DNA of 60,000 nt from Malacoraja senta (lineage: Eukaryota). Where the stretch lies: the NCBI GenBank assembly GCA_038087875.1, contig CM075989.1, positions 14,696,001-14,756,000 on the forward strand. The letters run 5' to 3'. Positions 4,753-60,000 of the stretch are shown here, in pieces (position 1 is the stretch's first letter; each line of letters begins with the position of its first letter). The notes under the pieces were generated by a model. The model saw only the letters and a list, made by a program, of their open reading frames with translations. It ran no database searches and was not told where the DNA came from. The translations under genes and the position numbers were made by a program.

Positions 4753-6056
4753 CTAGAAATACATTTAGAAAAGAGAGAAACTATAAAGGATAACACTGCA
4801 GTCAAAAGGGATACATTATCCTCCCTCAGATCACCCATCAGGTGAAAGGACAGATACACACAGGTAACTCCTGCATCAATCTCCTTGCCATGGTTTATGT
4901 TCTCCCACCAAAAATACTGACTCCCTGGAAAAAGTGTTTTCTTACACCAGTGGCTTAAAAATATTTCCCTTCCCCTTCCAAAAAGTAAAAAGGTGAAGTG
5001 AGTATATTTGAAAGTTAACTACATCAGCAAGAGACTTGCACCATCTCTCCAGTGCTGGTTTGTGAAATTTCATAGGATCATAAGACACAGGAGCAGAATT
5101 AGGCCATTTGGCCCATCAAGTCAACTCCGCCATTCCATCATGGCTGATCTATCTTTCCCTCTCAACCCGATTCTCCCACCTTCTCCCCATAACCCCTGAC
5201 ACGCTTACTAATCATGAATCTATCAGTCTCTGCCTTAAAGAGTCCCAACATAATGATCAAAAACATAGAACATAGAACATTACAGCACAGGAACTGGCCA
5301 ACAAACTAATCCCCTCTATCTGCATGCAATCCACATTCCTCCATATCATAAGACATATGCATAGAATTAGGCCGTTCAGCCCATCATCTTCTCTGCCATT
5401 CTGTCATGGCTGATCTATCCCGCCTAACTCCATTTTCCTGCCTTCTCCCCTAACCTCTGACACCTGTACTAATCAAGAACCTATTCATCTCTGCTTTAAA
5501 AATACTCAATGACTAGGCCTACACAGCAACATGTGGCAATGAATTCCACAGATGCACCACCCTCTGACTAAAGAAATTACTCCTCATCTCCATTCTAAAA
5601 GGTACATCCTTTTATTCTGAGGCCGTGTCCTCTGGTCCTAGACTCTCCCACTGCTGGAAACATCCTCGCCACATCCACTCTATCTAGGGTTTTGTGCAAA
5701 GTGAAACCCCTGTGTATTCCACTTTGCCACCTGTGGAACAAAGTCAGAGAAATAAGATCTATGGAGTCTTCACTTTCTCTATTCAAGCTGTACCCGAGCC
5801 AGTGGCTGGTGTGTGGGGTTCTCTACGGTTCACAAGTAATCCTTTTTAGAAGTGTCCTGTTTTAAAACCGTATAGGGGCTTGCATTGAAACCAACTCAGA
5901 TCAAAACTTCTGAACCTCTTCCACACAGGGGTCGCCAGCCTTCCCTGGGACAAGGGGCAATAGCATGCGAACAACTGAAGAAGGGTTTCGGCCCGAAACG
6001 TTGCCTATTTCCTTCGCTCCATAGATGCTGCTGCACCCGCTGAGTTTCTCCAGCAT

Positions 6057-6645
6057 TTTTTTTTTATTTTTTAAATTTTTATTTATTAGAAGTACATTAC
6101 ATTACAACCACATACATTAGTACTCATTATTGACTATAGGTAATAAAAGTGATAAATTTCTTAATTTTAAATTTTGTTTTATTTGTTTCCAAATTCGGAT
6201 TGTACTATGAATAATTGGGTTCTTATTATAATTTATGTTATTCAATTTCATTGGAGAGAGGAGGATTGCTCCAATGTTTCTAGAGGAGCAATCCTCTTTC
6301 TCCATTACAATCCAGTCCACTTGCTGGGCGGAGTTATCCATCAGTTGAATCATATTTTTAATATTTACTGACCAATAATAATACATAAAATTAGGTAGTG
6401 CTAAACCCCCCAATACTTTAGGTTTATTCAGATGAGTTTTTTGTATTCTATGTGATTTATAGTCCCATATAAAATTAGTGATATCCGAGTCGAGTTTTTT
6501 TTTAAACTTCTTTGGTAAGTATATAGGAATTGATTGAAATAGGTATAAAATTTGTGGTAAAAAGATCATTTTTATTGCGTTTATTCGGCCTATTAAAGAC
6601 ATCGGGAGCGTTTTCCAGAATTTAATTAGTGTGTTTAATTTATTG
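6057..6645 (-). mobile_element. L1-clade LINE ORF2 fragment with A-rich 3' tail
   Basis: Open frame WKTLPMSLIGRINAIKMIFLPQILYLFQSIPI...FIWDYK...GGLALPNFMYYYW is typical of the post-RT region of L1 ORF2. It is followed by AATAAA and an A-rich tail at about 6057-6090. Confidence 0.88.
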
Positions 6646-7449
6646 TGTAGCATGCGAACAACACCTGCCTGGGCTTTCAGTGGGGAATCCACACAACACA
6701 GACACTGAGTGCTGCAGCCCCGTACAAATCTTTTCAATGTTGCAGGTCCTTTGCTTTCTACATATTTTATTCATGAAGTGCAGGGAAAAAAACCCCAACT
6801 AAATTTAGGGCAAACACGAAAAATCTACAGAAACTAATTAGCGCACATGGAGGTTTGGCATACATTTTATCAGCATGCGCAGCACAGGTCAGATGAAGTC
6901 AGCGAATAATACATTTCAATCAGCTATGGACAAACTCTAAAATATCTGATTGTCTCGGGCTTCCTTGTATAGTGAAATACCGAAATGTCTGTAATCCTGG
7001 AAACACTCCAGCTCCCCTGTACAATAAGTACATACAACATGGCTGAGAAACACTACTGAAGAAGCTGGGATGGGGGGCTTCGGATAAGTATCTTTTAGTT
7101 TAGTTTTAGTTTGGAGATACAGCGGGGCAACAGGCCCTTTGGCCTACCAAGTCTGCACCGACCAGCGATCCCCACACATTAACACGATCCTACACACACT
7201 AGGGACAATTTACATTTATACCAAGCCAATTAACCTACAAACCTGTATGTCTTTGGAGTGTCTAACAATGAAGGTGGCAGGAGCACCATCACTGCAAGAA
7301 ATGCAGCCAGGGATTAAAGTAAAATGATAAAAATACTGACAATAAAACACGAGAGAATTTTATTGACAACACACAGATACATGTTTCAGGCTGAAGCAAA
7401 CGGATGCAAGCTTGAAAAAAAGGGAAAGAATTCCCCCAGCTAAACTTAC

Positions 7450-57294: not shown

Positions 57295-58010
57295 ACACAT
57301 CGCAGCATGATTTGGGAACAGCTCCATCCAAGACCGCAAGAAATTGCAGAGAGTTGTGGATACAGCCCATTCCATCAGGCAAACCAACCTTCCATTGACT
57401 CCAACTACACTTCACACTGCATCGGCAAGGCCACCAACATAATCAAGGATCAGTCTCACCCTGGTCACCCCCTCTTCTCCCCTCTCTCATCAAGCGAGAG
57501 GTACAGAAGTTTGAAAACACACACCTCCAGATTCAGGGACAGTTTCTTCCCAGCTATTATCAGGCAACTGAACTGTCCTCTCACTAACTAAAGAGCTGTC
57601 CGGACCTCCCATCTACTTCATTGCAATTACACAAAAATGCTGGAGAAACTCAGCGGGTGCAGCAGCATCTATGGAGTGAAGGAAATAGGCAACGTTTCGG
57701 GCCGAAACCCTTCTTCAGACCCGAAACGTTGCCTATTTCCTTCGCTCCATAGATGCTGCTGCACCCGCTGAGTTTCTCCAGCATTTTTGTGTACCTGGGA
57801 TTTTCCAGCATCTGCAGTTCCTTCTTAAACACTTCATTGCAATATTTTTACTGGACTTTATCTTGCACTAAACGTTATACCCATTATCTGTATCTGTACA
57901 CTGTGGACGGCTTGAGTGTAATCATGTATAGCCTTTTCAGTGACTGGATAGCACGCAACACTTTAAAAAAAACTGTACCTCAGTTCACATGACAATAATA
58001 AACTAAACTA
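57295..58010 (+). mobile_element. Rex1/Babar-type LINE 3' end
   Basis: IIKDQSHPGHPLFSPLSSSERYRSLKTHTSRFRDSFFP motif and tail TGACAATAATAAACTAAACTA. Interrupted by the PLE fold-back at 57628. Confidence 0.78.
57628..57830. repeat. Fold-back PLE terminal-repeat insertion nested in a LINE 3' end
   Basis: Near-perfect inverted arms. 13-bp direct repeat ACTTCATTGCAAT at 57615-57627 and 57831-57843. Confidence 0.88.
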
Positions 58011-60000
58011 GAATCCCAGGAGAAGGGGCTGGACATGTAACAATGAAGTGGGGAGATTTCTTCATGGAGAAGGCTTGAATCTGTGGAATTCTCCAGCCCT
58101 GGGAGTGGGGTATGGAGTTCAATGATCCAAAGCTGAGATACTCTGGAGGCTAAAAGAAGCCAGGGGAAAAGACAGTAAATTGAGATTGGCGATCAGCTCT
58201 ATTCTTGTTGACAACCGAGCAGCTCAGAGGGCGATCTGCTCTTATACCAGTTGCCGGCAATGCTTCATAGGAGTTACAAAGCACAGGGCACTTTTTAGAA
58301 CAAGAGTTGAAGGTGTCTTTGTTCATCATTACTGGAGTATTTGAACTCATAATACATTACTGGGTTCTGTATCTCTGGCCTGTTTCATGCCTGGTCAAAC
58401 CTCTGCCACTGCTGGGGCTCCTGCCTGCCCTGGTGAGAGGGTTGCCAGCTGCTGCTGGGGTGAAGGCTTGAAACCTGCTTCTGGTGCGTACAAAACACTC
58501 ACTAATTGCATCATTTCAGGACCTGCCACAGGGGCATTGATCAGTGTGTGCTGCAGATACACTGAAAACAAAACACATCTGTATATCCATACACAGAAAA
58601 ACACAACAGCTCAGTGCTTTAGCTTGCAATATTGTGATTGATGTTTTTTTTTTTAAGTGGGTATTTTGTAAGTGTACTGTGTGCTTGAACGGTTCCATCT
58701 AGGTTTAAATGATTTTTACGGCATCAATATTCAATATAAATGCCAACCAAAAACTCGAACGAGCGGTTGGCAACAGTGCAACCTGCTGCACCCCCCAGAG
58801 AGGGCAGTTTCATTCTCCAGGGAGGCAAATCAGGCCCCAGTGCCCGGTCTGCACTCACTTCAGCAAAGCCACAAACAGTGAACTAGTTGCAGCATTGAAC
58901 CACATTATAACACAGCCACTGCTCACTCCAACCATCAGAACAGTTACTTAAAGACATTCTGGTCCTGGAGTTATTAAATCAGTGTGTTTTCACCCATCAG
59001 ATGGCCAAGCAACAACTTGAAGCACAACTACAAGATGAGGCAAACACAGAACAATGCATGTCATGCTAAATCACAGCAGGTCTCCATGCAGATGGGGCTG
59101 CTGTAAAAAAAACAACACACTGCAACTAGTCTCTTTGCCTGAGGTGCACACTCAGGATTTGGCTGATAAATCCCACAGGACCCACTCTGAAGGTATCGTC
59201 AGATGATGTCACTTCCCTGCTGCTTCCACTGGCACCCAGCATGCCTCATGATCTTCAAACAATGAGCAAACAGATTCATCAGCAGCCAGCAGCATGATAC
59301 TTAGCCAGGTGTAGACCTGCTTTGTTGCACCCCAACCTCCCCGTAATGAGGTTTGGAAGCCCTCAATAATTTATTTTTGTTTGCCCTAGGATGAGCCGCT
59401 TGCCGTTGAGAGCTGGAGATCAAGTCATAAATGGAAACTCAACAAGTGAAAAACCAAGCAGCTGTATTAAAAGGGATTCCTTCATGCCTGAAGTTTTCCC
59501 ATTCCCATAAATGTCCACATCCCAATGCAACAGCAAGACGTGACTTCCAGAAAACATACAAATCAGCAACTTTTCTCTTTGCCTCAATATTTCAGTCAAC
59601 TACAGGAGCAGAGAATGGAGCTTGAACTAAACAAGACAATGCACTTTGGAGTCAAGAGTCACAAACGTTCAGCACAGAAACTGGCCCTGGGCCTTCCTCG
59701 TCCACACCAACCTGCTTGCCCATCTACACTACTCCATTTACATGGAACAGTGCAGCACAGGACCAGGCTCCCGATGCTGCTGAAGAAAGGGGCAACTCGA
59801 AACATCGCCTACCCATGTTCTCCAGAGATGCCACCTGACTCCCCGAGTTACTCCAGCAACTTGTTTTTTAAAAATAAACCAGCCTTGAGCATCTTTACTT
59901 CTACATCTTCGCCCCACACCCTCTGTACTGAACATGATGCCGTTAAATTAATCTCCGCTGCCTGCACGTCAACCATATCCCTCCATATTTATTTATCCAC

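Follow-up and report, generated by a model that had tools for sequence, protein, structure and literature searches.

Minimal hammerhead ribozymes have been described in Penelope-like elements (PLE), where the motif sits in both pseudo-long terminal repeats (pLTR), many dispersed single motifs derive from truncated copies, and activity is low and seen with dimers only (Cervera and De la Pena 2014, PMC4209133). PLE of the Neptune clade that encode an endonuclease combine a reverse transcriptase (RT), a Cys-rich linker, a C-terminal GIY-YIG domain and pLTR in partial tandem, and their insertions show an inverted, 5'-truncated copy, a one-sided tail of 30-40 nt and target-site duplications (PMC8557442; PMC3846280). 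In PAc, a Poseidon element of the green anole, reverse transcription starts at two adjacent sites downstream of the hammerhead, which match the genomic 3' ends. The template there is mainly uncleaved RNA, and the ribozyme needs the element protein in order to cleave; insertion in vitro does not depend on the ribozyme (Frangieh et al. 2024, PMC11167929). Finally, non-LTR retrozymes carry a type I hammerhead in a pLTR-related non-coding repeat (bioRxiv 10.64898/2026.07.22.740005). Many of these features recur in the stretch analysed here, 60,000 nucleotides of Malacoraja senta DNA (contig CM075989.1, positions 14,696,001 to 14,756,000; hereafter, the window), which is strewn with short repeats. 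These very probably arose by 5'-truncated insertion of the pLTR from an autonomous Penelope-like retrotransposon. The parent element likely belongs to the Neptune clade, and its pLTR contains a minimal type I hammerhead motif for which cleavage is predicted solely in dimeric form or with a protein's help.

Every element of the published consensus is present (CUGANGA, GAAA and UH, an extra base after A9, a stem II with G10.1-C11.1 and a palindromic CG at 15.2-16.2), with the 4-bp/4-nt spacing of the Acropora Neptune motif and a stem I close to the lower limit of published lengths (PMC4209133). Element class, hammerhead motif, inverted copies, tails and target duplications are already published, and the differences lie elsewhere. 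Cartilaginous fishes have no row in Fig. S3 or Table S1 of PMC4209133, in which coelacanth and frog have 4,000-9,000 complete cores, compared with ~100,000 here. Unlike those of Neptune PLE, the insertions are usually shrunk to the last 95-130 nt, and no description of the pile-up of 5' ends at the hammerhead edge reported below was found in the accounts of Neptune PLE in PMC8557442 and PMC3846280. PAc belongs to another clade, and its open reading frame (ORF) starts inside stem II, whereas the first ATG of the parent element lies ~165 nt after the core; protein-aided cleavage has been demonstrated for PAc, whereas the hammerhead here is predicted from sequence. Non-LTR retrozymes form head-to-tail arrays with one ribozyme per unit, whereas the copies in the window are single or head-to-head. 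Among the matches listed from the open literature, no paper deals with this family in cartilaginous fishes and none links Penelope with a strong-stop product.

The Penelope origin, which the initial annotation had proposed, is borne out by the parent element itself. Walking upstream from young copies led to a frame encoding RT and GIY-YIG and then to full-length elements of ~4 kb, with RT, Cys-rich linker, GIY-YIG and tandem pLTR. In two of these, at loci L143 and L146, the cores lie at 4168 and 8091 (3,923 nt apart) and at 4252 and 8321 (4,069 nt apart), within direct repeats of 439 nt (97% identical) and 378 nt (98% identical), respectively. A 968-codon open frame (L129/L146) matches Pfam RVT_1 at 452-621 (E=6.5e-6) and GIY-YIG at 872-905 (E=0.0012), both just under the curated cut-offs, and the N-terminal part is in another frame in the copies examined, a shift that may be genuine or may reflect decay within a repetitive linker. 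Homologues at E<=1e-30 number 1,039 among 7,993 scored, the best named protein relatives come from sharks and rays (64-73% identity) and a search of solved structures gave no match. The translated linker between RT and GIY-YIG reads CNRKRCNTC, and a Cys-rich linker marks Neptune or Nematis elements (PMC8557442), while a metagenome relative (L178), the RT of which is 50% identical to that of the parent element, has the published motif of Acropora digitifera Neptune (PMC4209133).

That the motif is a minimal type I hammerhead, with an ACGU stem III and an extra A, is backed by covariation with relatives and by the published consensus (PMC4209133). A scan requiring stem II gave 50 hits on the coding strand and 10 on the other in 80 loci of relatives, against 1.2 per strand in shuffles. 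From it, 10 rows representing seven elements were aligned, that is, eight motifs from five of the closest loci (metagenome contigs) sharing a 13-nt spacing, and two of the family's own copies; these rows were hand-picked for equal spacing from the hits of that scan, which favours stem II and leaves stem I unselected. Fourteen columns are invariant, and stems I and II are paired in 87.5% of cells with 24 two-sided changes, a level reached in none of 500 shuffles (slid controls, 24-55%); stem II is 97.5% paired, and the first two pairs of stem I hold in 20 of 20 cells. Covariance models gave no hammerhead family among the 16 Rfam matches at E<=10 in the window; the matches to miRNA families are head-to-head hairpins, all below gathering scores. 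Within the family, variation falls on loop II, the fourth pair of stem II (U-A or U-G), H17 (C or U) and position 1.1 (A or G). Both cleavage triplets, GUC and GUU, on which the initial annotation had founded two subfamilies, are indeed found, but that division is too simple, since triplet, loop II and position 1.1 combine in several ways. Similarly, it gave the length of stem I correctly as about 2 bp but took it as a sign that many copies may be dead: full-length elements show the same state, which is therefore not decay.

The descriptor search that had also been suggested (CTGAAGA-N10-24-GAAACGTH) found 103,420 matches in the 1.94-Gb genome, compared with 190 when the pattern was reversed as a control. 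One 33-mer occurs in 10,678 exact copies and its control in none, so the repeats are not due to chance. Ends of copies were studied in a 450-kb sample chosen independently of this repeat and made up of the window, 30 stretches of 10 kb each and the loci L083-L110 (28 in all, fetched for a CR1 fragment). It holds 179 copies, 173 of them kept after removal of six at locus edges. Scaling gives roughly 750,000 segments per genome, a rough figure as the sample is not strictly random, and the full core is kept in 30 of the 173 copies. The descriptor search also returned recurring cores with other stem II sequences (G000:C1:703464-703492 and 23203666-23203692), which probably belong to further Penelope families.

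In what follows, C3 of the core (the first C of CTGAAGA) is position 0, and the predicted cut lies between +27 and +28. The 3' ends of the 173 copies form two peaks about 33 nt apart, with 94 at +85..104 and 64 at +115..134, and no copy in the sample extends past +134. These peaks agree with the paired start sites of reverse transcription and with the 30-40-nt tail known from PLE (PMC11167929, PMC3846280, PMC8557442). Head-to-head pairs hold 70 of the copies, and 28 of the 35 pairs join one long to one short 3' end, while none joins two long ones (p=1e-5 against independence), a bias that priming on both target strands by a single complex would produce. Target-site duplications of 10-17 nt, read by eye, flank 10 of 14 young unpaired stubs. 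A candidate landmark for the start sites is CCAGCAT, found in L146 at +75 and +102 from the core at 4252 and able to pair with an upstream GATGCTG, each 3' end lying ~18-27 nt further on.

At the hammerhead edge, the 5' ends show a pile-up, with 82 of the 173 in -10..+4. Of the 71 single copies reaching +4, 50 end in this same 15-nt interval, whereas bins of equal size take up 7-10% each downstream and 0-20% upstream, and in young cores genome-wide the 9 nt upstream are kept in 8,038 cases compared with 16,540 for the 9 nt downstream. The flank beyond the piled-up ends is not an overlooked pyrimidine tract (mean C+T content 48%, at least 75% in six of 84). Truncation at the cut site was considered as the main origin of the stubs and rejected, because only five ends fall in +25..29, although a small excess persists there. 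Unit-length copies behave differently. Thirty were picked by their ORF start, of which 20 reach the upstream core and 19 of these read through it by 150 to >1,300 nt (19 of the 30 thus extend at least 150 nt upstream of the core); the single stop at the core edge, one in 20 or one in 18 with look-alike duplicates merged, contrasts with the stubs (Fisher p ~5e-7). The other 10 end at +10..+116, none of them at the cut site. In contigs from eight of 24 sequencing runs of other organisms, which may represent DNA or RNA, the best-supported loose ends lie at -6 to -3, ~+90 and ~+128.

A copying scheme can be proposed on this basis. The element protein would nick the target and, as in the anole element (PMC11167929), begin cDNA synthesis at two positions downstream of the core. 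On a linear RNA beginning a few bases upstream of the core, synthesis would run off after 95-130 nt and leave a stub, and two run-off cDNAs from opposite strands would join head to head via short self-complementary stretches. More-than-unit copies would come from a template lacking that 5' end, which could be the circle put forward in PMC4209133 or an RNA reading through a tandem. That the pile-up marks an RNA end, and hence run-off, has in our view about an even chance of being right. A fuller version with two template classes is tentative, and we consider it rather doubtful. In it, capped linear RNAs starting from an initiator-like TCAGT three bases before the core would yield nothing but run-off stubs, several hundred thousand in number, whereas a dimer of the two hammerheads within a transcript would cut and circularise the RNA, and only these circles would give the more-than-unit copies that sustain the element. 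The TCAGT at -5..-1 fits the initiator consensus, and a start just before the core would also explain the 2-bp stem I. The pLTR of D. virilis Penelope has an internal promoter, and a 75-nt intron beginning 46 nt after its start site runs up to the hammerhead (PMC2377424), a geometry of promoter, intron and hammerhead that differs from that of the parent element. A retained intron of this kind, which would end at the CAG before the core, may exist here too, but there is no conserved donor at the stop codon, none of 111 short copies is spliced and no GT..AG joint occurs there among the joints listed. Splice-donor look-alikes do lie ~165 nt after the core, AAG/GTATG in the young family (L143:4325-4335, holding the first ATG) and AAG/GTGTG in one older copy (L143:3822-3832), and no splice joint at them appears among the contig joints listed.

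Instead of an RNA end, the pile-up might reflect a local roadblock or joining bias in the same element, caused by a C-rich tract, a bound protein or the near-palindrome TCAG-T-CTGA annealing cDNA ends, which we regard as possible while short of probable. It does coincide with the near-palindrome and with one border of a long pyrimidine tract, several junctions fold back exactly there, and palindromes at inverted junctions are known (PMC3846280). The smear of 5' ends and the weak cap-G trace described below also speak for it. However, it is equally strong in unpaired (50 of 103) and paired copies (32 of 70), unit-length copies cross the same sequence in 19 of 20 cases, and a stall at the stem II hairpin would be expected on the 3' side of the hairpin, not where the ends are found. 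The initial annotation had instead seen a largely non-autonomous system, which would mean short repeats that propagate themselves (SINE-like or retrozyme-like, SINE being a short interspersed nuclear element) by borrowing the Penelope protein and using their own ribozyme. Such elements derived from pLTR and bearing hammerheads are described (bioRxiv 10.64898/2026.07.22.740005), and the short copies both far outnumber the long ones (11 of 103 singles extend past -100) and have preferred ends, but we consider this origin very improbable. In the young family, the only one compared, short copies differ from long ones by a mean of 2.66 positions and from one another by 2.63 (32 short, 51 long in register), and the common haplotypes are shared; 5' ends are ragged, each stub having its own end and flank with no transduced sequence in common, rather than showing the private mutations and fixed 5' end of a SINE-like lineage. 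Copies are dispersed or head-to-head, with no head-to-tail ribozyme array among the 39 segments of the window, and none of the 173 keeps the region past +134, where the anole protein binds (PMC11167929). Because of the shared haplotypes and this uniform 3' limit, the short copies look like truncated products of the autonomous element. A possible retrozyme-like mini-array was seen at L005:24-266, where four short head-to-tail partial units of the hammerhead region lie ~50 nt apart.

As for catalysis, a motif of hammerhead descent might have lost its activity in this lineage and been kept as a promoter, splice or protein-binding signal. The 2-bp stem I, with one G-U in part of the young family, and an active fold that modelling favours poorly speak for it, as do the TCAGT and the match of the pyrimidine tract plus CAG to a splice acceptor. 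So does the anole element, whose insertion in vitro was not impaired by mutating the core and whose RNA showed no ends at the cut site (PMC11167929). We nevertheless find such a loss unlikely. The core letters are identical in distant relatives while the stems differ by compensatory changes, family variation (loop II, H17, position 1.1) always preserves pairs and a cleavable triplet, 2-bp stems I are present among published motifs (PMC4209133), and none of the 111 short copies is spliced. Variants at N7 are also about twice as common as those at A6 (~88 of 100 listed matches in register, of 6,021, against ~46 of 100, of 5,363), a hand count with a modest signal. We infer that the hammerhead is kept by selection in master elements and that genomic stubs are mostly dead ends.

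Several observations weigh against the picture of an active hammerhead with run-off copying from a Neptune element. The cleaving dimer fold is predicted at ~-6 kcal/mol, the weakest of six motifs compared (-9 to -16 for four relatives), while the best alternative co-folds reach -27 to -29 kcal/mol in a model that ignores tertiary contacts. The 5' ends are smeared over ~12 nt rather than falling on one base, and the extra G that a cap would leave, seen locally in 14 of 21 cases, is a weak trace genome-wide (2,016 G against 3,000 A/T, 40% where 28% is expected). Six singles end at +26..30 where 2.3 are expected (p=0.03, post hoc), which makes a minor class of cleaved templates possible. The read-through of unit-length copies could stem from the mere fact that they are what survives of long, processive synthesis. 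Finally, the Neptune assignment is likely on the strength of the linker and one published relative, not of an RT tree.

A BLAST catalogue lists 39 repeat segments at 26 places in the window (Table 1), in keeping with the more than 20 copies first counted; the core is intact in five, with four of four stem II pairs, mutated in 16 and truncated in 18. The five intact ones are exactly those that the initial annotation had named, with coordinates and letters all matching, and its statement that longer copies place the repeat after a GIY-YIG C-terminus holds at all three sites (codons at 35482-35704 and 23914-23979 by tblastn, and the last nine codons, in the sequence itself, at 52237). It had missed that 26 of the 39 segments form head-to-head pairs (13 places), that the 3' end occurs in two forms, ~95 and ~130 nt long, and that sequence variants number more than two. 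In such pairs, a transcript would be expected to form a long hairpin hiding the core.

Table 1. Penelope-derived segments and remnants in the window (positions are those of the window).
Feature	Position	Strand	Details
Single stub, GUU type	5975..6060	+	core intact, 5975-6002; 5' end at C3
Single stub, GUC triplet	8283..8375	-	core intact, 8346-8373
Head-to-head pair	9423..9652	short arm -, long arm +	junction just 5' of core; cores mutated
Single stub	10310..10424	-	mutated core
Head-to-head pair	12181..12372		decayed
Head-to-head pair	13494..13637		both arms truncated 3' of core
Head-to-head pair	14846..15079		mutated cores
Head-to-head pair	20544..20724		BLAST catalogue
Longer copy	23600..23979	-	GIY-YIG C-terminal codons, pyrimidine-rich 3' untranslated region (UTR), mutated core, short 3' end
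Old GIY-YIG remnant, related element	28600..28764	+	no core found adjoining
Head-to-head pair	34538..34746		minus arm core complete, 34611-34638; N7=G, G-U at pair 10.1-11.1
Longest window copy	35483..35948	+	73 GIY-YIG codons with a frameshift, then 3' UTR; core at 35820 mutated; 3' end of the long form
Single stub	36769..36865	+	mutated core
Single stub	38824..38910	+	truncated core
Young head-to-head pair	40632..40832		junction within stem II
Head-to-head pair	40934..41097		BLAST catalogue
Single stub	42295..42380	-	truncated core
Head-to-head pair	42525..42746		junction just 5' of core
Head-to-head pair	42906..43055		BLAST catalogue
Head-to-head pair	43412..43571		BLAST catalogue
Old single stub	46477..46563	+	BLAST catalogue
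Stub without core	46906..47016	+	short inverted partner 46906-46942, excluded from pair count
Head-to-head pair	51469..51653		BLAST catalogue
Young GUU copy	52229..52508	+	last GIY-YIG codons, 3' UTR, core intact, 52379-52406, long 3' end
Single stub	55713..55810	-	starts at +28, the predicted cut site
Young head-to-head pair	57628..57834		minus arm core intact, 57691-57718
Old single stub	59780..59864	+	BLAST catalogue

The window also holds other features. At 7400-7560 on the minus strand lies an exon for a small GTPase of the Ras family (Pfam Ras, E=1e-8); we take its peptide to resemble RAB27A, so the repeats nearby are probably intronic. A Tc1/mariner DNA transposon at 20810-22433, with 229-nt inverted repeats (96% identical) and an open transposase frame of 344 codons (21186-22217, plus strand), is apparently young. 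A fragment of a CR1-type long interspersed nuclear element (LINE) is found at 53693-54391 on the plus strand (RVT_1, E=3e-5), and a single repeat family at 824-1280, 26148-26603 and 47312-47615 presumably consists of CR1-type LINE fragments as well. On the minus strand, a 217-codon frame at 6120-6770 has no Pfam match and, we assume, resembles the C-terminal region of an L1-type LINE. The longest Penelope copy appears to have inserted into a tRNA-like SINE head, presumably HE1-like, that immediately precedes it (35418-35482, plus strand), and a long (CA)n-type microsatellite occupies 56245-56529.

The value of this family lies in its scale and youth, since a single genome that supplies ~100,000 complete cores, together with 4-kb elements that are nearly intact, offers large counts on how an element is copied. 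What the Penelope hammerhead does is an open question (PMC8557442, PMC11167929), and the contrast between stubs that stop at its edge and unit-length copies that read through makes a direct prediction on RNA start sites and circles. Should the version with two template classes hold, the hammerhead, in a role proposed in 2014 and never shown, would be a switch between dead-end and productive copying.

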